The translations under genes and the position numbers were made by a program. A DNA stretch of 25,432 nucleotides. Origin: Thermoproteota archaeon. GTDB lineage: Archaea; Korarchaeota; Korarchaeia; Korarchaeales; Korarchaeaceae. Numbering within the stretch: position 1 is the stretch's first letter; each line of letters starts with the position of its first letter. Shown one piece after another: positions 3,195 through 25,432 of the stretch. The stretch spans positions 1-25,432 of the forward strand of contig JAVCBY010000094.1 of NCBI GenBank assembly GCA_037917625.1. The letters are read 5' to 3'. The notes under the pieces are model-generated. The model saw only the letters and a list, made by a program, of their open reading frames with translations, was not told the DNA's origin and ran no database searches.

Positions 3195-3375
3195 AGCTGC
3201 CCCGGACGTGGGATGGTTAATGCCCCGAAAGGAGCAAAACATGTTTGATGGTCTTCCTCCAAGAAGGCTCCTCGATGAGCTGATGAAGCTTGGAGCGGGT
3301 TCACCCTGAAAGGAGGCTTATGAGGGCTCCAATGAACTCGAGAGGAGCCCAAAGCTGATGAATCCCAGATATGTG
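3195..3375 (+). mobile_element. Candidate IS200/IS605 (tnpB) 3'-end remnant or structured RNA
   Basis: Hairpin GGGCTCC(3324-3330)/GGAGCCC(3344-3350) with a TGA-containing loop. Several TGATGA/CTGA motifs. One frame reads ERVHPERRLMRAPMNSRGAQS*, recalling archaeal TnpB C-terminal tails. No tnpB ORF present. Confidence 0.3.
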
Positions 3376-3532
3376 AGTCTTAAAGACTACATAGCTCAGA
3401 ACCCCAATAATTCCCTACCTTAACCTAGCTATTATGCTCAGCGTACTGCTCGCCGCCTCAACGATTCTTGTCGGTTCATTTCAGCTGGAAAGGAATGAAA
3501 TGGAATTATATCATCAAGGCCTATGATAGGAT

Positions 3533-3682
3533 TCAAGGGCCTAATACTTCCCATCCCATTTTTAGTGGGGTTGGATGATCCCCCTGGGATTTGTGAGATC
3601 CAAAGAGTATAGCAGTCCCCTCGATGGGGGAGTTCATTCTGAGGTATGAGATCCTCAAGCTATCGAATACTCCAGGCATCAT
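3533..3682 (-). pseudogene. Degraded nucleotidyltransferase (MNT)-like fragment
   Basis: 49-codon ORF MMPGVFDSLRISYLRMNSPIEGTAILFGSHKSQGDHP... resembles the MNT motif AILFGSRARGD; the downstream DxD is absent. Confidence 0.4.
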
Positions 3683-3845
3683 CTAGCTCTTTCAGTCACC
3701 ACGCTCACCTTAAATTACTGGATAGCTCTTTTAGCTAGAACGATCCCTATTCTCGCATATTTTTCCAAAATAGGTCCTAAAAGCTAACTCTTTATTAATA
3801 CTTTTACTTTATATATAAAATAATTACCCATTCACTGTAAGAAGG

Positions 3846-3855
3846 TTTTTAAATA
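3846..3855 (+). promoter_or_regulatory. Putative archaeal TATA box
   Basis: TTTTTAAATA preceded by the purine-rich AAGAAGG, about 27 nt upstream of ATG 3882. Confidence 0.5.
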
Positions 3856-3881
3856 TCTTATCCTCTCGCGGTGTGATCAAG

Positions 3882-4154
3882 ATGAGCAGGGATCGGATCA
3901 TAGGGGCTGGAATTCTCCTCTTATCTGTTGCAGTGATCATATCATATCTCTACTTCATCTTCCTCACTGAGTTCTCCCTCCCTCTGCTCAAGATAACTGC
4001 TGCTGTAGCAGTCGTCGGAGTCTTCGGCGTGCTCGGATGGATAGGCTACACCCTAGCCACTCCCCCACCTAAGCCGATGGAGGAGATAGAGAAGGAGATA
4101 GAAGAGGAGATAAAGAAGATAGAGGAAGAGGAGAGGAAAGAAACTGCTAAGTAG
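3882..4154 (+). CDS. Conserved archaeal two-TM small membrane protein (often auto-annotated 'transcriptional regulator')
   Basis: MSRDRIIGAGILL..., two TM helices, WIGYTLATPPPKP and a charged EEIEKEIEEE tail. GGTGTGA ribosome-binding site before ATG 3882; alternative GTG at 3873. Confidence 0.8.
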   Translation: MSRDRIIGAGILLLSVAVIISYLYFIFLTEFSLPLLKITAAVAVVGVFGVLGWIGYTLATPPPKPMEEIEKEIEEEIKKIEEEERKETAK

Positions 4155-13469: not shown

Positions 13470-13670
13470 GTAGCATCATAACTTGCGATGTTCATACACT
13501 CCAAGTGTCGAAAGGGCTTCCTCGATATCCTGTTGAGAAGGACTGATTCCCTCCAGAGCGCATTCCCGATCTCATATGAGTGAGCGTTAATATAAAATTC
13601 CCCTTGAGGTGATCGAGTGAGCCAGGTCCATCTAACTATTCAGTAGAGCTGATGCATCGAATACTATCAT
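13470..13670 (-). pseudogene. vapC: Decayed VapC (PIN-domain) toxin
   Basis: ATG 13670 overlaps the antitoxin stop and gives MIVFDASALLNS*. Other frames give GPGSLDHLKGNFILTLT / YEIGNALWRESVLLNRIS / EEALSTL / NIASYDA, i.e. PIN motifs broken by frameshifts and deletions. Confidence 0.8.
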
Positions 13671-13888
13671 CTCTCCTCACGACTCGCTCTCACAGCGTCA
13701 ACTATCTCCTCCAGTGGAATCTTCTTGAGAATAGCTTGAGCTTTCTCCAGCATTTTCCTTATCTCCTCCCTTCTCCTCACTTCCTCCTCTAGGGCCCTCT
13801 TGATGACATTACTAATCGGAATTCTGTAACTCTTCAATTTTTCGTAGAGCTCCCTCCTCACCTTCGCAGATACTGTCACATACCCCAT
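13667..13888 (-). CDS. VapB-type (CcdA-like, RHH) antitoxin
   Basis: MGYVTVSAKVRRELYEKLK...ISNVIKRALEEEV...VRASREER, coupled to a PIN remnant. Confidence 0.85.
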   Translation of the reverse strand: MGYVTVSAKVRRELYEKLKSYRIPISNVIKRALEEEVRRREEIRKMLEKAQAILKKIPLEEIVDAVRASREER

Positions 13889-14082: not shown

Positions 14083-14844
14083 TTATTGGCCCCCGGAAGT
14101 TTTATACAAGCGACCGTAAATCGGTCTGAAGTATGCGCATCTATCTGGACTTATCTTGAGCTCCTCAGGATCGAAATCCCCGAACTCAACAGGAGCTCCC
14201 CTTATTATGACGAAGGGGATCAAATCATCCCCCTCGCCCATCAGGAGGTGGGCAGCAGATGCTAGATCATCAGCCACGTTGAGAGTGGTAACTAATATCC
14301 TCTTCCCATAAGCGTCACTCTTCCCCCTGTAATCCCTTATCCCCCTGAAGCCAGCTATCCCTAGGGCGAATCCAGTAGTCCCCATCCTGAGTGGGGAGAG
14401 CTTACTATCAACTATTATGACCCCCACTACTTTACCGGTCCTTCTCATTATCTCATCCCTTATCCTCTTAGCCTCTAAGTTGGGATCCTCCGGCCACAAT
14501 GCTGCGAATCCTTCAGGAGCATTCTTATGATCTATCCCAGCATTAGCGACTAATATGCCATCCTTAACAGTCAATATAGTCCTCTCAGCAGTCCCCAAAA
14601 TGAGATCAGAGTTCCTTATGACTAGTTCAGCGAAACCCGGCTCTAAACCGGATTCCTCAGCTAGCTTCACTGCTTCCTCAGATGGCTCTATGTCATAATT
14701 CACGAACCTCCCCTGGCTAGCAGCTACAGCTTTATCAGCTACAGCTATCACATCTAAGTCCAGGGGATCGTAGAGATCGAGGAGCAAGCTGACTATATCG
14801 TCCCCCTCAACTATCTTACGGGTCCTTATTGCGATTAACTCCAT
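14083..14844 (-). CDS. cofE: CofE-family gamma-glutamyl ligase (F420-0:L-glutamate ligase / FolC2-like)
   Basis: DKAVAASQG, NAGIDHKN, IIVDS, PLRMGTTGFALG, DYRGKSDAYG and ADDLASAAHLLMGEG motifs. Likely start MELIAIRT at 14844, overlapping the mptE end. Confidence 0.9.
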   Translation of the reverse strand: MELIAIRTRKIVEGDDIVSLLLDLYDPLDLDVIAVADKAVAASQGRFVNYDIEPSEEAVKLAEESGLEPGFAELVIRNSDLILGTAERTILTVKDGILVANAGIDHKNAPEGFAALWPEDPNLEAKRIRDEIMRRTGKVVGVIIVDSKLSPLRMGTTGFALGIAGFRGIRDYRGKSDAYGKRILVTTLNVADDLASAAHLLMGEGDDLIPFVIIRGAPVEFGDFDPEELKISPDRCAYFRPIYGRLYKTSGGQ

Positions 14845-15515
14845 CCTCCAACCTCCAGCGGGCATCCTATCTCAATAGATAAATTCAATAACTCTCTAGC
14901 TATCCTCAGCTTCTCCATCTTCCTCCTTATATCCTTACCAGCTGCGATATCATACTCACTCACGGCCTCGAAGTCCATACCAGCTAGCCTTATTGACTTA
15001 GCCCCGCACATACAAGCTAGGAAGACTGATCTATCTCCATCGGTGAAGCCCCCGAAGTTATGAACTCTCTCCGTAGGCTCTACTTGAGTGGTCGCTACTA
15101 GCTCTTGAATGCTGGGGACGAACTTAATTAGCCTCTCCACATTATCCCCATGAGCGTGCAGGACTTTGATGGAGCTCATCGATAGTATCTCCGGAGGACC
15201 GTCTAAATCGCTCACTATAACATCAGGCTCCCTCCCGAAGAGCTTCAAGTAGTTCAGCGAGGCTGCATCAGCTGTTATAACTATGCCACCGAAATCGAAC
15301 CCCCTGCTCAGAGAGGGGCCATTCCCCACGACTAAAACATTCTCACCTCTTATCAAATCTTCTAGCTCCTCAGAGAGGTCCTTCTTCCCGATCATGAGGG
15401 AGTCCATGACTCTAGTAGCCCTTCTATCAGCTTCAACATCTAGCTTCAACCTCTCAGCTATCTTGAAGTAGATGGGCATCCAGAACCCTAGATCTATCTC
15501 CCTCACAGAGGCCAA
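14835..15515 (-). CDS. mptE: 6-hydroxymethyl-7,8-dihydropterin pyrophosphokinase, archaeal type
   Basis: GNGPSL, DVIVSDLDG, VLHAHGDN, TTQVEP, NFGGFTDGDR and LAGMDF motifs. Confidence 0.9.
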   Translation of the reverse strand: MASVREIDLGFWMPIYFKIAERLKLDVEADRRATRVMDSLMIGKKDLSEELEDLIRGENVLVVGNGPSLSRGFDFGGIVITADAASLNYLKLFGREPDVIVSDLDGPPEILSMSSIKVLHAHGDNVERLIKFVPSIQELVATTQVEPTERVHNFGGFTDGDRSVFLACMCGAKSIRLAGMDFEAVSEYDIAAGKDIRRKMEKLRIARELLNLSIEIGCPLEVGGWS

Positions 15516-15561: not shown

Positions 15562-16779
15562 TTGTTCCTAAGGGCGGACCTCTCTGGAGTCAAGATAGGA
15601 TTAGGTGAGCCTGTTAAAGTAATGGGCGCGATAAATCTGAGTCCTGAGTCCTTCTACAAGGGGTCAGTGGCTAGAGATCCTGATGAAGCCCTGAAGAGAG
15701 CTGAGAGGATGGTGGAGGATGGAGCTTCCGTAATAGATGTGGGTGGGATGAGCACAGCTCCCTATTTAGATACTCAAGTGAGCCCTGAGGAGGAGAAGAG
15801 GAGAGTAATACCTGTCCTGAGGAAGCTCTCTGATTTAGGCGTGCCAATCTCGATAGATACTCAGAGGTATGAGGTAGCATTAGCTGCTGTGGAAGCGGGG
15901 GCCACGATAATAAATGATGTGTCGGGCCTCTCCGATCCCAAGTTAGCGGAGCTTATAGCATCAATGGACCTCTCCTTGATCTTAGGGGCTAGGGGGAGCG
16001 TCATCGGGGAGGATCCGATGAGGGAACTCAGGAAGTTGTTGAGAGAGGCTTTGAAGAGAGCGATTGGGATAAAGGAAGATAGGATAGTCATAGATCCCTT
16101 AATAGGTTTCTTCAGGGAGCAAAAGGTCCCTTGGTACGTCTGGGACTCTGAGGTGATAAGGAGGCTGAGGAGCCTCCTCATACTGGGGAGACCAATTTGC
16201 ATAGGTGTATCGAGGAAATCATTCATAGGGAAGATTACAAGTGAAGAGGATCCTGAAAAAAGGCTTTTCGGGAGTCTCTCAGCTACAGCTATAGCTGTTT
16301 ACAATGGAGCTAGTTTGATAAGGACCCATGACGTTAGGGAGACTGTCCAAGCGATAAGAGTGGCTGAGTTCATAAGGGAGGAAGTTGCTCATGTGAGGGT
16401 AGGGGAGGTAGAAGCCTATCAATTCAGTTTCGATCTGAAAGCTGAGGACCTCGAGGACTTCTTCATCGAGATAGGGTCCCATCCTCAAGGAGCTGCGAGG
16501 ATGTCTGAGAAAGCTGAGATGAGAGTGATATACATGAGGGGGGTCAGTAATCCAGTGGCTCTAGTGATAAAGCAAGAGATGTTAGCATCTGGAGGGGAAG
16601 CAGCTCTCCCATCTAGCTCAATAGTGTTCGGGAGTGAGAGAGTGGATTTAGTCGTGATAGGGAACATGAAGCAACTCAAGAGGTTGATGGAGAAGATGGA
16701 TCTCAACTATAAGATAGGCGGGAGCCTCTCAAAAGATTTCGAAGCAGTTAGGGATGCATTATCAAATTTGATAAGATGA
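15562..16779 (+). CDS. folP: Dihydropteroate synthase with a ~130-aa C-terminal dihydropteroate-reductase-like domain
   Basis: DHPS barrel motifs MGAINLSPESFY, IDVGGMSTAP, SIDT, INDVSG, IDPLIGF, GVSRKSFIG, RTHDV. Extension contains IGSHPQGAARMSEK...ALVIKQEMLASGGEAALP...VIGNMKQLKRL. Confidence 0.92.
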   Translation: MFLRADLSGVKIGLGEPVKVMGAINLSPESFYKGSVARDPDEALKRAERMVEDGASVIDVGGMSTAPYLDTQVSPEEEKRRVIPVLRKLSDLGVPISIDTQRYEVALAAVEAGATIINDVSGLSDPKLAELIASMDLSLILGARGSVIGEDPMRELRKLLREALKRAIGIKEDRIVIDPLIGFFREQKVPWYVWDSEVIRRLRSLLILGRPICIGVSRKSFIGKITSEEDPEKRLFGSLSATAIAVYNGASLIRTHDVRETVQAIRVAEFIREEVAHVRVGEVEAYQFSFDLKAEDLEDFFIEIGSHPQGAARMSEKAEMRVIYMRGVSNPVALVIKQEMLASGGEAALPSSSIVFGSERVDLVVIGNMKQLKRLMEKMDLNYKIGGSLSKDFEAVRDALSNLIR

Positions 16780-17610
16780 ATCAAATTCTTCTCTTATCTC
16801 ATCCAATGTAGAGGATCTCTCAGCGTATATATCGTGCATGTGCACGCTCTCCATACTCCTTACGGCAGCGAAGATATGCGTATCCCCGGGCATTTGTCCG
16901 AACTCCTCTAGGAATAGGTGCAATATCTCCCTGACCACGTCCTCAGCTAGCTTAGCGTTACTCAAGGAGTGGAGTACTAAGCCCCCCTCATCTGGCCTCT
17001 TCGTGTAAGTCCTCAGCGGGGAGCTCATAGCCCTCTCAATTATGCTAGCTAACTTATCCGGATCTGGATGAGCTTCCCTAGTGCTCACCTCTAGTATGCC
17101 CAAGCTCCTCTGAGTGTGGGTCGCTGGAATCTCAGAATTAGTGTAGGCCCTTATGAGCTCAGCTGTGCATGGACAAGCTGTCATGCCCAAGACCTCAACT
17201 CTAGTCTTATTTATGACTCCATTAGAAGCCACAGAGCTTATCTCAACTCTGTAATATTTGAGGGATTTAGAATCTTGAAGGGGAGCATCGAACTTAATTG
17301 AGATACCGGAGGCATCAGCGTAATTCAGCCTCTCAAGGAGCAAAATTGCCACTTCCTTACAGAGGTCCCAAGGCTCTTTAGGGGGATCGGAGAGCTCATA
17401 TATGACTTCCACTTGCCTGCTGAGATCGACCCCTCTCCTCTCCTTAGGTAAGCTGACCCAGATATCTGCATCAGCGAGCAAGAGGAAGCCGTTGAACTTC
17501 ACTGGGACCTTCAGTCCAAAGCTACCAACTCTATCGAGCTTTATCTTGTGAGAAGGGGCCTCTGAATGTATATCTCTTACTCTCTCAAGTAGTTCCTCCG
17601 GAAGCCGCAT
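16762..17610 (-). CDS. mptA: GTP cyclohydrolase, FolE2/MptA family
   Basis: RGVDLSR, MTACPC, THTQRS, KRPDE, EDVVR and ESVHMHD motifs; 18-nt convergent overlap with folP. Confidence 0.88.
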   Translation of the reverse strand: MRLPEELLERVRDIHSEAPSHKIKLDRVGSFGLKVPVKFNGFLLLADADIWVSLPKERRGVDLSRQVEVIYELSDPPKEPWDLCKEVAILLLERLNYADASGISIKFDAPLQDSKSLKYYRVEISSVASNGVINKTRVEVLGMTACPCTAELIRAYTNSEIPATHTQRSLGILEVSTREAHPDPDKLASIIERAMSSPLRTYTKRPDEGGLVLHSLSNAKLAEDVVREILHLFLEEFGQMPGDTHIFAAVRSMESVHMHDIYAERSSTLDEIREEFDSSYQI

Positions 17611-17704: not shown

Positions 17705-19165
17705 ATGAAGCTGAGCATCCTCAATCACGTCATAGGCCCCGTGATAAGGGGGCCCTCCAGCTCTCACACGGGGGCATCTTACTTCATCGGGAAGTTAGCT
17801 AGGGGTCTTCTCTTGGACGATCTCCTCGAAGCTAGGATAATATTCGATGAGAAGGGCTCGTACGCTAGAGTCTACAAGCAAGAAGCTGGCGATCTCGCGT
17901 TCGTCTCCGGATTATTGGGCTTAGATTTAGCGGATGAGAGGTTCAAGAGATCTATTGAGTTAGCTGAGGAGCTAGGGATAAAGGTGGAGTTCTTCCTATC
18001 CGATTTAGGCAGGGAAGCTCATCCGAATGAAGTGATCATAGAGATGAAGGGAAGGGAGGGGGAGCTGGTAGCTAGAGCTAGATCCATAGGAGGGGGAATG
18101 TTCGAGTTCCTAGAGCTCAATGGCAGTCCAGTTAAGTTGACTGGGGAGGAGTACATCCATTTGGTAGAGGGACCTGAGTCTGAGAGATCTTATTCCTTCG
18201 AATCCGGGGGTAGGAGGATCTCGATAGTCAAGAGCGCTGAGCCCCTCCCTATAGAGAGTGAGAGGGTCCTCGAGCCCATATTCCTACCCATGAAAGGTGA
18301 GGAGATATTTTCGAGCGGATCTGAGGTAGAGAAGTTCTGTGAGAGGGAAGGGATCAGCTTAGGGGAAGCGGGATTACGCTATGAAGCTGAGCTCCTAGGG
18401 ATGAGCGAGAGAGATGTGTTAAAAATAATGATGGAGAGGTACAGGATAATGAAGAGATCGATAGAGGAGGGGTTGAGCGGTGAGCTGAGCTTGAAAATAC
18501 TGAAGCCATCAGCTAACTCCATCTTGAGGAAGCTTGAGAGAGGTGAGTTAGCTGTTGGAGGATTGCATACTAAAGCTGCAGCTCTATCTATGGCTGTTAT
18601 GCATGCTTGCAATTCCAATGCTTTAGTCGTAGCTGCTCCGACTGGCGGATCTGCTGGCGTCATCCCAGGAGTATTAGCAGCTTTAGAGGAGAGATTCGGC
18701 CTATCAGAGGAGGAGATAGCTAGATCTCTCTTCGCAGCTGGTGTTGCAGGTCTCATAATCGGGAAGAGAGCTACTTTCGCTGCTGAGGAAGCTGGCTGCC
18801 AAGTGGAGATAGGGGCAGCTGGAGCTATGGCATCAGCGATGGTCGTAGAAGCTTTCAATGGATCTTGCAAGCAGGCCCTAGATGCTGCAGCTATCTCCCT
18901 CCAGAATGTAGTTGGGATGGTCTGCGATCCTGTAGGAGGCTTCGTAGAGGTACCCTGCCATACTAGGAACGCTATAGCTGCTGCCTCAGCCTTCGTCAAT
19001 GCCGACCTAATAATAGGGGGATATGAGAACCCCATACCCTTCGATGAGACCGTAGATGCTATTTACTCAGTTGGGAAGATGATGGCATGGGATTTAAGAT
19101 GTACAGCGATGGGAGGATTAGCTGTTTGCCCATCAGCGATGAAATTCATGCCTAAAACGGGCTAA
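17705..19165 (+). CDS. Fe-S-dependent L-serine dehydratase, fused beta-alpha chain
   Basis: N-terminal GPVIRGPSSSHTG, HPN and SIGGG (beta). C-terminal AAPTGGSAGVIPG, GCQVEIG and CDPVGGFVEVPC (alpha, three Cys ligands). Confidence 0.92.
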   Translation: MKLSILNHVIGPVIRGPSSSHTGASYFIGKLARGLLLDDLLEARIIFDEKGSYARVYKQEAGDLAFVSGLLGLDLADERFKRSIELAEELGIKVEFFLSDLGREAHPNEVIIEMKGREGELVARARSIGGGMFEFLELNGSPVKLTGEEYIHLVEGPESERSYSFESGGRRISIVKSAEPLPIESERVLEPIFLPMKGEEIFSSGSEVEKFCEREGISLGEAGLRYEAELLGMSERDVLKIMMERYRIMKRSIEEGLSGELSLKILKPSANSILRKLERGELAVGGLHTKAAALSMAVMHACNSNALVVAAPTGGSAGVIPGVLAALEERFGLSEEEIARSLFAAGVAGLIIGKRATFAAEEAGCQVEIGAAGAMASAMVVEAFNGSCKQALDAAAISLQNVVGMVCDPVGGFVEVPCHTRNAIAAASAFVNADLIIGGYENPIPFDETVDAIYSVGKMMAWDLRCTAMGGLAVCPSAMKFMPKTG

Positions 19166-19305: not shown

Positions 19306-20610
19306 ATGGGCAGGTTATCCAGGAAGGACATCATAGAGTTATCCAATAATTATATGATGACGAACATCTTTAGATGGTGGGAAGACGATCCTATAGTCGT
19401 TGAATCCGGAAAGGGAGCGATAATAAAGGATGTGGATGGGAGGGAGTACATAGATCTCCATGCTATGCACGCAGTCGCATCCCAAGGTTACTCTCACCCT
19501 AAGATAATAAACGCAATTAAGGAGCAGCTCGAGAAGATCTTCATAGTCGCTACAGATTTCTACAACGAGCCTCAGGCTTTACTCGCTAAGAAACTGGCTG
19601 AAATAACGCCAGGGAAACTGAAGAGGAGCTTCTTCGTGAACTCAGGTGCTGAAGCAGTTGAGACAGCCATATTGCTCGCGAAGAGAGCTAAGAGCAGGCC
19701 CGGGATAATGGCCTTATGGATGGCCTTCCACGGTAGGACTCATATGCCCAGAACTCTTACGGGCTTCTCGAAATATAAGAAGGGGATGGGTGCATTCCCA
19801 TACGGCGTCTTCCATATTCCGAATTACTACTGCTACCGTTGCCCCCTAGGCTTGGAGTATCCTTCATGCAACTTACAATGCGCTAGGATGGTGGATGATG
19901 CTCTGAAGTATGCAGCGCCTGAGGAAGTAGCAGCTTTCATAGCTGAACCGATTCAGGGGACTGCGGGGAATATAGTACCGCCCGATGATTACTTCAGGAC
20001 CGTTAAGAAAATCTTAGACCAATATGATATACTGTTCATAGCTGATGAAGTCATAACGGGATTCGGGAGGACTGGGAAAATGTTCGCAATAGAGCACTTC
20101 GGTGTCGAGCCCGATATAATGACTATGGCTAAAGCTTTGGGCGGTGGATTCCCCGTAGCTGCAGCTATAGCTACTGAGGAAGTTGGGACATCGTTCAAGC
20201 CCCTAGATCATTACTCCACATACGGTGGCAACCCCCTGGCTATGACAGCAGCTTTAGCGGCGATAAGCGTCATAGAAGAGGAGGGGCTCGTTGAGAAAGC
20301 TGCGAGAGACGGGGAGTACATGCTGAAGAGGTTGAGGGAACTCATGGATAAGCATGAGATCATAGGGGATGTGGATGGGAAGGGCCTCCTGATAGGGATG
20401 GAGTTGGTCAAGGATAGGAGGACTAAGGAACCGGCTGTCGAGGAGACAGTGAAATTCAGGTCTGAGTTGAGGAAGAGAGGCGTCATAATAGGACCTCCTG
20501 GATGGACGGGCTCTAGGGTTAGGATAAATCCTCCGCTCGTGATCACGCGGGAGCAAATAGATGCTGCAGTAGAGGCGATAGATGATTCTCTAAAGGCTAT
20601 TAAAGGATAA
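19306..20610 (+). CDS. PLP-dependent class III aminotransferase (GabT/AGXT2-like)
   Basis: DVDGREYID, NSGAEAVE, FHGRT, EPIQGTAG, FIADEVITGFGRTG, MAKALGGG (PLP lysine), TYGGNP, RINPPL. Confidence 0.93.
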   Translation: MGRLSRKDIIELSNNYMMTNIFRWWEDDPIVVESGKGAIIKDVDGREYIDLHAMHAVASQGYSHPKIINAIKEQLEKIFIVATDFYNEPQALLAKKLAEITPGKLKRSFFVNSGAEAVETAILLAKRAKSRPGIMALWMAFHGRTHMPRTLTGFSKYKKGMGAFPYGVFHIPNYYCYRCPLGLEYPSCNLQCARMVDDALKYAAPEEVAAFIAEPIQGTAGNIVPPDDYFRTVKKILDQYDILFIADEVITGFGRTGKMFAIEHFGVEPDIMTMAKALGGGFPVAAAIATEEVGTSFKPLDHYSTYGGNPLAMTAALAAISVIEEEGLVEKAARDGEYMLKRLRELMDKHEIIGDVDGKGLLIGMELVKDRRTKEPAVEETVKFRSELRKRGVIIGPPGWTGSRVRINPPLVITREQIDAAVEAIDDSLKAIKG

Positions 20611-20787: not shown

Positions 20788-22152
20788 ATGGAGAGGACCG
20801 CATGGGTATTGGGAATCATCCTTCTCATAGTTGGGCTAGCGATCGGCTACTTCGCTGCTGGCCCTGGAACCGTAAAGACCGTTACGCAGACAGTCACGCA
20901 AACTGTCACACAAACCGCTACAGTACCTGCTGTAACGACACCTCCAATTAAGGAGGTCGTAGTGAAGGTGGGGGTCCTCCTCCCGCTTTCAGGCGGTTCA
21001 GCTTTCGATGGGCAGGAGGATCTCAGGGGAATACAGCTAGCAGCATTGCACATAAATCAGAGTAAATATGAGAACATAAAGTTCAAGATAAAGCTAGTAA
21101 TAGCAGATACTCAGACGAGGCAGGACGTCGGAGTGACTGAGCTCAGGAGGCTCGATCGAGAGGGCGTAGTTGCGATCCTAGGAGCTTTCAACTCCGCAGT
21201 GACCTATCCCACAGCAGGCGAAGCTGAGAAGATAGGCCTTCCTTATGTAGTACCAGAGGCAATTGCTGATAGGATAACGGCTCAGGGATGGAAGTATGTC
21301 TTCAGGACTTGTGCAAACGCTAGCAAATATGCATACGACACTCTCTGGGCTCTATCCGATATGGCGAAGGCCAAGGGTGTCGAGATAAAGACAGTAGCTT
21401 ATATATACGAGAACTCCGACTTCGGAGTGTTCACTGTAGAAGGTCTCAAGAAGTCCCTAAACAAATTCTTCCCTGATGCTAAGGCCGTATATGAGGAGAG
21501 CTATCCAGCTGAACAGGTAACTAGTATGGACGATATGGTCGCGAAGCTCAAGGCTGCGAATCCAGATGTCGTGTTCCATGTAGCTTATCTGAAGGATGCG
21601 GTGCTCTTCGTCCAGACGATGAAGAAACTGGGATGGTATCCTAAGGCTTACATAGGGACTGGGGCAGGAGGACAGGCGAGAGTGGAGTTCATAGATCAGC
21701 TCAAGGGTGATGCAAACCTCGTCTTCACTCAAACAGAGTGGCAGCCCGACTTCCTGACGTCAAAGAGCTTGGCTAAGTGGGCTTGGATAGATGAGGATTT
21801 CAAGAAGATCCATGGGAGGAGCATGACAGGGAGCTCGGGCCTCAACTACGTTGGCACTTACGTGCTGGCGGTCGCTATACAGAAAGCTTTGGACTCGGGA
21901 GCAGATCCGAATGATCTCGTAAGCTTCAGAAAAGCCATAAGAGATGCTCTTGAGACCGTAAAGATACCAGCTGGTGAGCTGCCCCTAATGCCTTGGGGAG
22001 TCGACTTCACTAGAGCTCCGAATCACCAGAACCCAGAAGCTGCTGTTGCGATGGCCCAGATATTAGAAGGGAAGTTCAGAGTGGTCTGGCCATTGGAGTT
22101 CGCACCTGTTGAACCTGTACTCCCGGTTCCAAGCTGGGGATCCAGATCATAA
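20788..22152 (+). CDS. Branched-chain/hydrophobic amino acid ABC transporter substrate-binding protein (LivK/LivJ family), membrane anchored
   Basis: N-terminal TM helix, Thr-rich linker, KVGVLLPLSG, GAFNSAVT, YVFRT, YENSDFG, KLKAANPDVV. Confidence 0.93.
   Translation: MERTAWVLGIILLIVGLAIGYFAAGPGTVKTVTQTVTQTVTQTATVPAVTTPPIKEVVVKVGVLLPLSGGSAFDGQEDLRGIQLAALHINQSKYENIKFKIKLVIADTQTRQDVGVTELRRLDREGVVAILGAFNSAVTYPTAGEAEKIGLPYVVPEAIADRITAQGWKYVFRTCANASKYAYDTLWALSDMAKAKGVEIKTVAYIYENSDFGVFTVEGLKKSLNKFFPDAKAVYEESYPAEQVTSMDDMVAKLKAANPDVVFHVAYLKDAVLFVQTMKKLGWYPKAYIGTGAGGQARVEFIDQLKGDANLVFTQTEWQPDFLTSKSLAKWAWIDEDFKKIHGRSMTGSSGLNYVGTYVLAVAIQKALDSGADPNDLVSFRKAIRDALETVKIPAGELPLMPWGVDFTRAPNHQNPEAAVAMAQILEGKFRVVWPLEFAPVEPVLPVPSWGSRS
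20878..20925 (+). repeat. 12-nt degenerate coding repeat: TVTQ x3 plus TATV linker
   Basis: accgttacgcag acagtcacgcaa actgtcacacaa accgctacagta. Confidence 0.8.
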
Positions 22153-22153
22153 A

Positions 22154-22167
22154 CTTCTTTTTTTGTT
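22154..22167 (+). terminator. Putative intra-operon oligo-T terminator after the binding-protein gene
   Basis: ACTTCTTTTTTTGTT directly after the stop codon. Confidence 0.5.
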
Positions 22168-22186
22168 CACGGGGGGAGCAGTTTTG

Positions 22187-23074
22187 ATGGAATGGGGAGC
22201 TTACAGTCAGCTTATAATATCATATGCTATACTAGGTGGAGTTTATGCACTAACAGCTCTAGGTCTCTCGTTAATCTGGGGAGTTATGAGGGCCGTGAAT
22301 TGGGCTCACGGAGACTTACTCATGCTTGGAATGTATACGGCATACTGGATGGTCTTACTGCTCGGGATAGATCCTTTAATGGCTGCTATAGTTGCTTTCT
22401 GCCTCTTAGGTGCTCTAGGCGGGATAATCCATCTGATCGCGATAGAGCCCGTGATAGAGAAACCGGGAGGGCATGAAGCGACATTACTATCGACATTAGG
22501 GATCTCAGTGGCAATAGAAAGCATAGCTCTCATACTCTGGTCTCCGAGCCCTAGATCCTACGATAATATCTATAAGGGAATTTATCTAGAGTTCTTTGGG
22601 GTGAGGACGAGCCTAGCTGAGGCTATCGCCTTCTCTTTATCATTAATAGCGATTTTCCTGACGGATCAATTCATGAAGAGATCTAGATTGGGGAAAGCGA
22701 TAAGGGCTGTATCTCAGAACCCTATAGGGGCTAGAGTAGTCGGTATAGATGTATCTAAGATAAGGCTCTTCACTTTCGCGATCGGGGTAGCGCTCGCTGG
22801 AGTAGCTGGTGTTCTCGTATCAACATTCTATCCTAATATAAGGCCCCTCGCAGGTTACGTTTGGGATATAGCCTCTTACGTCGTAGTGATATTCGCGGGA
22901 CTGGGATCGATATACGGTGTGATATTCTCAGGCCTGATAATAGGGGTCTTGGAGGGGATCGGCGCGGTAATGTTCACGAATGCCTTCAGGCATATCTTGG
23001 TTTACTCGGTATTCCTAGTAGTACTCCTCCTTAAACCGGAGGGGCTATTCGGGAGAGCTCTCAGGAGGGTCTGA
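22187..23074 (+). CDS. livH: Branched-chain amino acid ABC permease, LivH family
   Basis: YALTALGLSLIWGVMRAVNWAHGD, GKAIRAVSQN, LLKPEGLFG. Start placed at MEWGAY after the GGGGGGAG ribosome-binding site. Confidence 0.92.
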   Translation: MEWGAYSQLIISYAILGGVYALTALGLSLIWGVMRAVNWAHGDLLMLGMYTAYWMVLLLGIDPLMAAIVAFCLLGALGGIIHLIAIEPVIEKPGGHEATLLSTLGISVAIESIALILWSPSPRSYDNIYKGIYLEFFGVRTSLAEAIAFSLSLIAIFLTDQFMKRSRLGKAIRAVSQNPIGARVVGIDVSKIRLFTFAIGVALAGVAGVLVSTFYPNIRPLAGYVWDIASYVVVIFAGLGSIYGVIFSGLIIGVLEGIGAVMFTNAFRHILVYSVFLVVLLLKPEGLFGRALRRV

Positions 23075-23075
23075 T

Positions 23076-24026
23076 ATGAGGAGATATCTAGTGATAGCAG
23101 TTATTCTCCTCGCATTGATACTCCCTCCCTTCTTGGATGAATTCTCCCTCACTGTCTTAGTGCAGATGCTCATGTGGGCTTACCTCGCTATGGCGTGGGA
23201 CGTTATAGGTGGGTATGGAGGCCAGTTCTCGCTGGGTCATGCGGCTTTCCTGGGATTAGGGGCATATATCTCTACCCTCCTCTTGGAGAACTTCGGCTTA
23301 ATTCCATGGATAGGGATCTGGATCTCGGGGATCGTCGCTGCAGGAGCAGGTGCTCTCGTCGGTTTCGCTTCCCTCAGGTTAAGGGGACCGTTCTTCGCTC
23401 TCGGTACGATAGCGTTCGCTGAGTTGACGCAACTCCTCCTAACTTACCTGAAGGATATAACTGGGGGGCCCCTGGGAATCATGATCAATAAGGTGGGATT
23501 CGAGTACATGGTATTCGATAAGCAGATCTACTATTACTACTTAATGCTCGCTTTCGCCATCTTCGGGATCTTATTCCTCAAATACTTCGAGAGATCTAAA
23601 TTCGGAATAGCTCTGATAGCTCTTAGGGAAGATGAGGATGCTGCTGAAGCAGTAGGGATCGATGTCTATAGAGCTAAAGTGCTGGGGGCTACGATAAGCG
23701 CTTTCCTCACTGGCATAGGGGGTACTCTCTACGCGCAATGGATACACTACATAAGGCCTGATACTCTAGTTAGGTTGGATTTCTCAACGCAAATAGCAGC
23801 AATAGATGTCGTAGGTGGAGCTGGGAGTCCATACGGTGGTATCATAGGTGCTCTGATACTAGTTCCCATCTCCCTATACTTAAATGCCCTCTTCGGTGGG
23901 ATGATAGCAGGCTTAAGCGTCCTCCTTTACGGCATAGTTCTGCTGATAGTAGTGGTCCTCATGCCTGGCGGTATATACGGATTCCTGAGGAGGTTAGCGA
24001 GGAGGGGGGATCATGCTCGAGGTTAG
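23076..24026 (+). CDS. livM: Branched-chain amino acid ABC permease, LivM family
   Basis: GGYGGQFSLGHAAF, LRLRGPFFALGT, ALREDEDAAEAVGI, MPGGIYG. Confidence 0.92.
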   Translation: MRRYLVIAVILLALILPPFLDEFSLTVLVQMLMWAYLAMAWDVIGGYGGQFSLGHAAFLGLGAYISTLLLENFGLIPWIGIWISGIVAAGAGALVGFASLRLRGPFFALGTIAFAELTQLLLTYLKDITGGPLGIMINKVGFEYMVFDKQIYYYYLMLAFAIFGILFLKYFERSKFGIALIALREDEDAAEAVGIDVYRAKVLGATISAFLTGIGGTLYAQWIHYIRPDTLVRLDFSTQIAAIDVVGGAGSPYGGIIGALILVPISLYLNALFGGMIAGLSVLLYGIVLLIVVVLMPGGIYGFLRRLARRGDHARG

Positions 24027-24735
24027 GGATGTAACGAAGAGATTCGGTGGATTAGTTGCCCTCAATAATGTCTCCTTGAACGTCAGTAAGGGAGAATTGC
24101 TTGGCTTGATCGGGCCTAACGGCTCCGGGAAGACGACGCTCTTCAACGTGATAACTGGCTTCTACAGGCCGGATAGCGGTAGGGTGATCTTCAAGGGGAT
24201 GGATATAACGGGGATGAGACCCCATAAGATCACTAGGTTGGGCATAGGGAGGACCTTCCAGATCCCGAAACCATTTGGGAGGATGTCAGTCCTTGAGAAC
24301 GTGATGACAGCAGCTTTCTACGGTGGGAACGCTTCAGGTTCGGAGGCTAGGGAGATAGCGGAGAGATGGATAGATTATGTAAGACTAAGGGAGAAAGCTC
24401 ATCAGGAGGCTAGGACATTGAACATAGTTGAGAGGAAGCTCATGGAACTTGCAAGAGCTCTCTCAACGAACCCCGAGCTCCTCCTCCTCGATGAACCCGT
24501 AGCAGGCCTCAATCCCTCAGAGACGATGGAAGTAGCGAATTTAGTCAGGAGGCTCGTCGATGAATTTGGGATAACAGTTATCATGGTAGAGCATGTTATG
24601 AGAGCTGTGATGACAGTCTCCGACAGGGTTTTCGTTCTGCACAGGGGGATGAAACTCGCTGAGGGAACCCCTGAGGAGATATCGAGGGATCCTAGGGTCA
24701 TAGAAGCTTACTTGGGGGAGCAGGTGAGATTATGA
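24013..24735 (+). CDS. livG: ABC ATPase, LivG family
   Basis: GPNGSGKTT, GRTFQ, LLLLDEP, VEHVM, VIEAYLG. Confidence 0.93.
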   Translation: MLEVRDVTKRFGGLVALNNVSLNVSKGELLGLIGPNGSGKTTLFNVITGFYRPDSGRVIFKGMDITGMRPHKITRLGIGRTFQIPKPFGRMSVLENVMTAAFYGGNASGSEAREIAERWIDYVRLREKAHQEARTLNIVERKLMELARALSTNPELLLLDEPVAGLNPSETMEVANLVRRLVDEFGITVIMVEHVMRAVMTVSDRVFVLHRGMKLAEGTPEEISRDPRVIEAYLGEQVRL

Positions 24736-25432
24736 GGATGCTCGAGTTGAGGGATCTAGATGCGGGATACGGGGATCTCCAAGTCTTATGGGATGTGAGC
24801 CTCGATGTTGAGCGTGGTGAGATCGTCAGCCTCTTAGGGAGTAATGGGGCCGGGAAGACGACGCTCCTAAGGACTATCTCTGGACTCTTGAGACCATTTA
24901 AAGGGAAGATATTACTCAAAGGAGAGGACATAACACAACTTCCAAGCCATAAGAGGGTGGAGCTGGGGCTCTCCCTAGTTCCTGAGGGCAGGCAACTCTT
25001 CCCGATGATGACCGTGACGGAGAACCTAGAGATGGGGGCTTATACTCCTGGAGCCAAGGAGAAGATGAGTGATAGCTTGGAGTGGGTATTCACGCTCTTC
25101 CCTGTCTTGAAGGAGAGGAAGAACCAGTTAGCTGGTACTATGAGCGGTGGGGAGCAGCAGATGCTCGCTATAGCTAGAGCCCTCATGAGTAGACCGGAGC
25201 TATTAGCTTTGGATGAGCCCTCGATGGGCCTCGCACCTAAGTTAGTTATGGAGATATTCAGGACGTTGCAGAGGATGAGGGATGAGGGAGTGACTATACT
25301 CCTAGCTGAGCAGAACGCTAGAGCTGCCCTCGAGATATCTGAGAAGGCTTACATAATTGAGACAGGTAGGATCGTGCTGCATGGACCATCTAAGGAATTG
25401 ATCCAGATGGATGAAGTCAGGAGGGCTTACCT
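24732..25432 (+). CDS. livF: ABC ATPase, LivF family; 3'-truncated by the window edge and absent from the ORF track
   Basis: MRMLELRDLDAGYGDLQVL...GSNGAGKTT...VPEGRQLF...MSGGEQQMLA...LDEPSMGLAP...EQN...VRRAY, open to the last base. Confidence 0.93.
   Translation, partial: MRMLELRDLDAGYGDLQVLWDVSLDVERGEIVSLLGSNGAGKTTLLRTISGLLRPFKGKILLKGEDITQLPSHKRVELGLSLVPEGRQLFPMMTVTENLEMGAYTPGAKEKMSDSLEWVFTLFPVLKERKNQLAGTMSGGEQQMLAIARALMSRPELLALDEPSMGLAPKLVMEIFRTLQRMRDEGVTILLAEQNARAALEISEKAYIIETGRIVLHGPSKELIQMDEVRRAY

Follow-up and report, generated by a model that had tools for sequence, protein, structure and literature searches.

Levin and colleagues are said to have reported in 2004 and 2007 that FolP of Helicobacter pylori (HP1232 type) is a bifunctional protein uniting dihydropteroate synthase (DHPS) with a flavin-dependent dihydropteroate reductase, 'DHFR2', and the abstract of the 2007 work reportedly places the reductase domain at the N-terminus and has it bind flavin mononucleotide (FMN). 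DHPS itself carries its substrate-binding motifs, N-x-[ST]-P-[DE]-S-F and R-x-H-D, near the ends of the barrel. Passages in de Crecy-Lagard et al. (PMC1971073) describe the fusion of H. pylori FolP to a flavin-dependent dihydropteroate reductase, and a table there gives H. pylori with a fused FolP/Dhfr2 and without FolA or FolM; a passage in Hou et al., 2008 (PMC2474590) applies the same reasoning to Methylacidiphilum (M. infernorum). For the chlamydial CofE homologue CT611, FolC activity is predicted and complementation is reported in the passages of PMC1971073. Here we describe a variant on the known H. pylori-type fusion, the H. pylori protein being taken from its description. It is encoded by the gene folP-X in a stretch of 25,432 nucleotides from a korarchaeote (assembly GCA_037917625.1, contig JAVCBY010000094.1, positions 1 to 25,432 of the forward strand), which as a whole is called the window. 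What is new here is a DHPS/reductase-like fusion in the reversed order, on an archaeal barrel and paired with a CofE-type ligase. With a probability of roughly 60%, we take folP-X to be a two-domain archaeal FolP, in which the DHPS barrel and a reductase-like C-terminal domain, X, give reduced folate without FolA or FolC.

The frame of folP-X comprises 405 codons with a TTG start and no internal stop. Its N-terminal part matches the Pfam family Pterin_bind (PF00809) with residues 21-256 (profile positions 1-244 of 244, E 4.2e-57) and the NCBIfam DHPS equivalog TIGR01496 with residues 19-270 (225 bits, cut-off 162.6), and both substrate-binding motifs are present in the translation as NLSPESFY and RTHDV. 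Judged by these matches, the N-terminal barrel is an ordinary dihydropteroate synthase, predicted to condense 6-hydroxymethyl-dihydropterin diphosphate (DHPPP) and p-aminobenzoate (pABA). A preliminary description of the window had let the barrel end at about 16380 with RTHDV...AEFI, followed by ~130 extra residues with a set of motifs, and both statements agree with what is seen: the barrel ends with ...RTHDV...AEF at residue 270, about base 16371, and the tail of 135 residues behind it (271-405, bases 16372-16776) holds the strings IGSHPQGAARMSEK, LVIKQEMLASGGEAALP and IGNMKQLKRLMEK. As a separate protein this tail is numbered P0002, with P0002 numbering being that of the protein minus 270. 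No Pfam or NCBIfam model matches the tail when both libraries are scanned. A search with the tail alone picked out 18 proteins, with E from 1e-76 to 2.5e-41, among 446 candidates scored; all of them bear PF00809, and they are mostly 404-406 amino acids (aa) long and, where named, from Candidatus Korarchaeum/Korarchaeota. An exhaustive phmmer search retrieved 246 of 1.84 billion cluster representatives at E <= 1e-3. This recurrence is more than chance would give, and the tail is a real, conserved domain, which is what the name X stands for.

The best 150 of the 246 representatives, classed by phmmer, comprise 54 with X before the barrel (X-DHPS), 19 with X behind it (DHPS-X) and 77 with X and no detectable barrel, many of the latter being proteins or fragments of 100-165 aa. 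X-DHPS representatives match the tail with E down to 3.6e-11, and Pfam confirmed Pterin_bind in all six full-length fusions scanned, which cover both orders (P0022, P0024, P0029, P0031, P0038, P0045). By these comparisons the N-terminal extensions that many bacterial and Thermoplasmata FolPs carry are homologues of X, which supports the preliminary description as far as kinship with a FolP extension is concerned. X-DHPS proteins are named from Bacillota (Desulfotomaculum, Pelotomaculum, Thermosyntropha, Calderihabitans, Phascolarctobacterium), Thermodesulfobacteriota, Omnitrophota, Elusimicrobiota and Thermoplasmata. The lineages compared with the window protein (Bacillota, Thermodesulfobacteriota, Omnitrophota and Thermoplasmata, with Desulforamulus putei DSM 12395 and Phascolarctobacterium succinatutens as examples) share with it the X family, the invariant lysines, KQEML..GG and the predicted fold, whereas their X stands before the barrel.

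Two lysines are invariant in the 60-row alignment A1, K47 and K67 of P0002, which are K317 (bases 16510-16512) and K337 of the protein, and nearly invariant are A63, Q68, L71, G74, G75 and G97 of P0002, the last five being Q338, L341, G344, G345 and G367 (bases 16660-16662) of the protein. The consensus of A1 reads IG..P.G..IM..KA ... ANIIKQEMLS.GGDAA ... GT..Q, all conserved residues of which are kept in the window protein, and the same columns are conserved in alignment A3. The pattern KQ[EDQ][MI]L[SA]xGG[DE], scanned in one genome per species, occurs in at least 599 stretches, of which 571 were confirmed as X loci; with at least 571 confirmed loci and no Pfam or NCBIfam model, the X family is thus large and unannotated. 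The best score in the ESM Atlas, 0.87, belongs to a 122-aa cluster automatically named "Dihydropteroate synthase", which is a lead only, and a profile search of the PDB with X gave a best E of 0.41, all rows being spurious coiled helices.

How common the reversed order is can be seen from 87 classed loci, namely 80 named loci of the pattern scan (of at least 571) and seven from the phylum of the window, two of the 87 being overlapping copies of the window locus itself. They comprise 38 X-DHPS, 34 DHPS-X and 15 open reading frames (ORFs) with X only; once loci with incomplete domains and the second copy of the window locus are set aside, 65 complete fused loci are left, 29 DHPS-X and 36 X-DHPS. 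The DHPS-X rows come from Korarchaeota, Odinarchaeota, Baldrarchaeota, Methanoperedens, Methanothrix/Methanotrichaceae, Methanolobus, Methanococcoides, Methanovorans and Methanocellaceae, a member of the Geothermarchaeales is also among the cluster names, and all rows are archaeal except one 1.6-kb contig binned as Bacteroidales. Within the Korarchaeota X is found in 21/43 genomes (14/25 of those of high quality), always inside one long frame of mostly 404-440 aa, and its occurrence in the genus of the window is patchy, with 8/21 genomes including the own genome. The rarity that the preliminary description had implied for the DHPS-then-X order is therefore contradicted by 29 of the 65 complete fused loci and 19 of the best 150 clusters at 50% identity. 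It had also allowed that the architecture might be both common and described already. Common it is, but described it does not seem to be: every source naming these proteins labels them "dihydropteroate synthase", and no paper on a C-terminal reductase-like DHPS domain or on a ThyX-like fold of FolP extensions was found in the literature searched, which did not extend to supplementary files (fusions of FolP may be listed in the supplement of PMC1971073). The order is thus widespread in archaea, yet without a published description found. Altogether the preliminary description is partly supported: homology and genomic context largely bear it out, and the rarity it implied was mistaken.

When the DHPS barrels alone (65 rows) are placed on a quick maximum-likelihood tree, one branch with 100% support in the SH-aLRT (Shimodaira-Hasegawa-like approximate likelihood-ratio test) separates the two orders, and just one change of state between them is required. 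The tail-end order therefore goes along with a distinct archaeal clade of barrels, which agrees with the archaeal-type DHPS named in the preliminary description. The tree of X (79 rows) is poorly resolved, with 33/76 branches open and long branches meeting, and places the DHPS-X rows in two groups; it may be compatible with a single origin of the C-terminal fusion or with more than one. X is also found detached from the barrel. In 6/15 X-only loci, all from Thermoplasmatales/Thermoplasmata, X is followed by a DHPS ORF of its own, whose start coincides with the stop codon of X or slightly precedes it, in another frame where inspected (L037), and the other nine have no DHPS within the flanks examined. 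One stand-alone X (L030) adjoins the gene for serine hydroxymethyltransferase (SHMT). Moreover, the 231-aa fragment P0032 is a FolE2-X fusion, in which residues 2-117 are the C-terminal half of FolE2/GCHY-1 and residues 133-222 are X. Since X is free-standing, mobile and fused to different partners and ends, independent fusion fits better than circular permutation, and we infer the former for the C-terminal X.

Some loci deserve separate mention. The Bacteroidales-labelled contig (L042, 1580 bases) carries a DHPS-X that nests within the Methanosarcinaceae on both trees, and is probably a misbinned archaeal contig rather than a bacterial case of DHPS-X. A match in the phylum of the window (L004, G024:C175:7828-8193) contains one in-frame TAA and sits on a long branch in both trees, which may reflect either a pseudogene or faulty sequencing. 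Scaffold13 of Methanococcoides seepicolus has two X-bearing genes ~8 kb apart (L051, L082), one a full 416-aa DHPS-X and the other a 258-aa frame with a partial barrel before X. Behind the stand-alone X of a Micrarchaeota genome (L065) and of an unclassified archaeon (L031) a 250-253-aa ORF without Pfam match (3346-4095 and 3365-4123, respectively) is found instead of DHPS.

The genomic setting fits a folate pathway without dihydrofolate reductase (DHFR). A search for DHFR (PF00186, DHFR_1), whose control was positive in 10/14 genomes, found the enzyme in none of 31 relatives, among which the own genome is counted and of which 21 reach a completeness of 90% or more; reductases of the FolM/PTR1 type, which are short-chain dehydrogenases/reductases (SDRs), were not part of this search. 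ThyA is absent from all 26 genomes of the phylum within the same 31-genome sample, ThyX is present in 23/31 genomes, the own genome included, and SHMT is found in 5/5 Korarchaeum genomes with DHPS-X. X and a canonical DHPS match occur in exactly the same genomes of the sample, 12 in number. This context suits the statement of the preliminary description that reduced folate without DHFR is conceivable. Weak Pterin_bind matches are also seen in frames of 493-540 aa (G008:C55, G013:C170, G023:C21, G024:C142, G025:C65, G027:C1), in genomes with and without DHPS-X, and these frames look like 'DHPS-like' proteins of the MJ0107/TIGR00284 type. In the ThyX of Korarchaeum (G000:C68:3419-4246, minus strand, and in the genus) the Thy1 match falls into two pieces, profile 8-79 and 56-185, ~79 codons apart, and the frame is 290-330 aa long against 218-235 aa in other lineages of the phylum, which looks like a genus-specific insertion.

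Three neighbours of folP-X belong to the pterin pathway (Table 1). Divergent from it lies a gene for an MptE-like enzyme, which by its family makes the DHPS substrate, and convergent with it a FolE2/MptA-type gene, assigned to the first step of the pterin branch, that overlaps the 3' end of folP-X by 18 bases. Among the five loci of the Korarchaeal clade the FolE2/MptA-type gene is beside DHPS-X in all and the MptE-like gene in four (L002, L003, L005, L006). A CofE-family gene is present as a single copy within about 1.5 kb of DHPS-X in 5/5 Korarchaeum genomes, and in the same five genomes CofD is found in none and FolC over the cut-off in none (best 31.5 bits, cut-off 162.65). A CofE-like gene lies within 3 kb of 14/29 DHPS-X loci, an undercount since Korarchaeal loci with short flanks are among them, and of 0/36 X-DHPS loci; FolE2 is upstream in 10/36 of the latter. 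With the chlamydial FolC2 (CT611) as precedent, the CofE-family neighbour at 14083-14865 is by analogy most likely the glutamate ligase of the folate pathway, probably acting on the pteroate product. As argued for CT611 in the passages of PMC1971073, the F420_ligase-family gene occurs in genomes without CofD and without FolC over the cut-off; unlike CT611 the window ligase is archaeal, belongs to another subfamily and, if X acts first, would use tetrahydropteroate and not dihydropteroate. The gene context thus fits a bypass of both FolA and FolC.

Table 1. Positions in the window of folP-X, its parts and the adjacent folate genes
Feature	Position	Strand	Basis
folP-X, 405-aa DHPS with C-terminal X domain	15562..16779	+	single ORF; stop codon 16777-16779
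DHPS TIM barrel, residues 19-270 (NLSPESFY ... RTHDV)	15616..16371	+	PF00809 and TIGR01496 matches
Linker, residues 271-289, predicted beta-hairpin leading into X	16372..16428	+	predicted strands, P0002 residues 4-10 and 13-18
X domain core, residues 290-405, predicted fold ThyX-like	16429..16776	+	246 representatives at E <= 1e-3; pLDDT 91.6
Signature motif KQEMLASGGEAA, residues 337-348	16570..16605	+	conserved columns of alignments A1 and A3
MptE-like 6-hydroxymethylpterin diphosphokinase, divergent neighbour	14835..15515	-	PF01973, E 2.5e-16
CofE/F420-ligase-family gene, candidate glutamate ligase (FolC2-like)	14083..14865	-	PF01996, E 1.4e-63
GTP cyclohydrolase IB (FolE2/MptA type), convergent neighbour	16762..17610	-	PF02649, E 1.6e-44

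Compared with H. pylori FolP, the latter by description only, the window protein likewise joins a DHPS barrel covalently to a domain of ~110 residues, and the window genome is without FolA and with ThyX as is H. pylori. The differences are that X is C-terminal, whereas the H. pylori domain is reportedly N-terminal, that the barrel belongs to a separate archaeal clade of DHPS, and that the partner ligase is of the CofE type and not FolC. No Helicobacter protein is among the 120 matches listed of 131, the 80 genome loci or the 30 clusters, and a search seeded with the representative closest to the motif given in the preliminary description yielded five unnamed matches. X may be the reductase domain of the H. 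pylori type, a reading that is well motivated by the literature description.

A lead to the function of X comes from its predicted fold. The AlphaFold2 model of the window X has a predicted local distance difference test (pLDDT) value of 91.6 and a predicted template modelling score (pTM) of 0.75, and that of the N-terminal X from FolP of Desulforamulus putei has 96.6 and 0.87. Exhaustive comparison with 48,161 chains by VIA-align puts ThyX on ranks 1-4 for both models, with the figures 7.8 / 106 and 8.9 / 110 for 2af6, 7.3 / 109 and 8.7 / 109 for 4fzb, 7.0 / 103 and 8.2 / 107 for 3ah5, and 6.6 / 101 and 8.3 / 104 for 5chp; the ThyX relative PolB (4p5a) follows with 5.6 on rank 7 and 6.7 on rank 5. 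ThyX is a tetramer of chains of about 190-250 aa with the deoxyuridine monophosphate (dUMP) binding motif RHRxxSxxxxSxR, and stacks the pterin ring of folate on its flavin, which makes a ThyX-like fold mechanistically attractive for X. The X core, by contrast, has ~115 aa, about half the size of ThyX (PF02511), is a predicted dimer and does not have the RHR...S...S.R motif, RHR being absent from all 135 residues of P0002. The Pfam scan gave no Thy1 (PF02511) match in folP-X at E <= 1, and hhalign of X against a thin ThyX profile of six rows gave a probability of 0.3% (E 0.18), which leaves common ancestry of X and ThyX unsupported at the level of sequence. Owing to this value, the half size and the missing motif, the ThyX-like fold of the models is a lead and not a family membership. 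Foldseek of X against the PDB gave no row at E <= 1e-3, and the KH domain suggested by its weak KH-like rows was not adopted.

Furthermore, a homodimer of X is predicted. Two copies of X together with FMN, which was not scored, were modelled in three runs along with three controls, and the dimer reached an ipSAE of 0.74 (0.74, 0.73 and 0.75 in the runs) against 0.00 for the best control. The ipSAE mark is reached by 20/30 solved same-chain pairs and 1/23 solved single chains, and is a rough measure here owing to the own alignment and the ligand present. At least 94% of the contacts agree between the runs, the pLDDT of the partner is at least 89, and the interface of 191-199 contacts includes P0002 residues 6-18, 44-48, 73-76 and 96-98. 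It therefore covers the invariant K47 and, of the nearly invariant residues, G74, G75 and G97; at the two-fold axis the two copies of residue 74 touch each other. The prediction supports an X dimer in which the conserved residues would form a composite site, although its score may partly reflect memory, if the model recognises ThyX-like assemblies. The invariant residues at the predicted interface are, like the fold, a new lead.

Combining these observations, the barrel of the two-domain FolP would join DHPPP to pABA and deliver 7,8-dihydropteroate. X would dimerise with Lys317, Gly344, Gly345 and Gly367 at the two-fold interface, hold a flavin against the pterin ring in the ThyX-like site of the dimer and reduce the dihydropteroate made by the barrel to tetrahydropteroate, to which the adjacent CofE-type ligase would add glutamate, giving tetrahydrofolate without FolA or FolC. 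As the organism uses ThyX, dihydrofolate would not be regenerated. Flavin binding, substrate and reduction by X are what we infer here, and so is the substrate of the ligase. Several points weigh against this proposal. FolM/PTR1-like SDRs were outside the DHFR search, which leaves room for another reductase, and gene absences in the window genome (1.22 Mb) have to be read with its completeness of only 84% in mind. X is likened to the H. pylori protein by its description, and FMN was unscored in the predicted dimer. Finally, DHPS-X is also common in methanogens using methanopterin, so that different lineages may have different physiological substrates. A wider version of the proposal, which we offer tentatively and with more doubt than conviction, is that X is a miniature dimeric flavin/pterin site of the ThyX lineage, ~115 residues in size and without a nucleotide-binding insert. 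In this wider version the DHFR-replacing reductase and ThyX would come from one ancestral flavin/folate fold, DHPS-X with a CofE-type ligase would be the standard FolA/FolC-independent route in Korarchaeota, Asgard lineages, Methanosarcinales and relatives, and the fusion would be separate from the bacterial X-DHPS.

The abundance of DHPS-X in Methanosarcinales, Methanotrichaceae and Methanocellaceae would also suit a flavoenzyme or pterin-handling module that catalyses something other than dihydropteroate reduction: it might reduce dihydrofolate once glutamate has been added, reduce a dihydropterin of the methanopterin type or with another modification, or transfer one-carbon units in the manner of ThyX. 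The nine stand-alone X loci without DHPS in their flanks and the FolE2-X fusion point the same way, as does ThyX, the source of the fold, which carries out methylene transfer plus reduction. X is, however, mostly fused to a canonical DHPS or next to one (73 of the best 150 representatives and the 65 complete fused loci), and neither the length nor the dUMP motif of ThyX is kept in it. The sole activity reported for the family in the passages of PMC1971073 is the reduction of dihydropteroate, and we regard another reaction as unlikely. More improbable is a non-catalytic X, that is a dimerisation, regulatory or ligand-sensing appendage (for pABA, a pterin or the folate end product), with the reduction left to an unrecognised enzyme elsewhere. 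The strong predicted homodimer, the missing cofactor motif and family model, the small KH-like alpha/beta domains in the weak Foldseek rows and the SDR-type reductases still to be reckoned with would all accord with such a role. Against it, X is also maintained as a gene of its own, its presence in the phylum goes together with missing DHFR, and the two invariant lysines and the near-invariant KQ..L..GG extend across bacteria, archaea and all three arrangements, a pattern that suits an active or cofactor site better than a scaffold. The fusion might even be artificial, if an error of assembly or reading frame had joined two neighbouring genes, considering that the window genome is metagenome-assembled and in 116 contigs and that split pairs of X and DHPS exist in Thermoplasmatales. 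This reading was rejected as practically negligible, because the uninterrupted frame recurs in the 21/43 genomes of the phylum, including one in a single contig (G012), and the same fusion is found in independent lineages.

Outside the folate genes, the window contains just upstream of the cluster an ORF of 73 aa whose match is to a CcdA-like antitoxin (13667-13888, minus strand, E 1.5e-06). On the other side and on the plus strand there follow a 486-aa serine dehydratase with the alpha-chain domain in its C-terminal half (17705-19165), which is next to FolE2 in all four Korarchaeum loci compared, a class-III aminotransferase (19306-20610) and the first part of an ABC transporter operon for branched-chain amino acids (20788-25430).

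Many archaea, Asgard lineages and methanogens included, have no recognisable DHFR and FolC, and their synthesis of reduced folate is therefore poorly annotated. If DHPS-X were recognised together with the CofE-type ligase, reconstructions of archaeal folate synthesis and predictions of auxotrophy would have two gaps fewer. Owing to its patchy occurrence in the genus, X marks those Korarchaeum lineages that may make their own folate. The ThyX-like fold, if true, would be the first structural hypothesis for the flavin-dependent dihydropteroate reductase of the H. pylori type and would tie two "DHFR-avoiding" inventions together.

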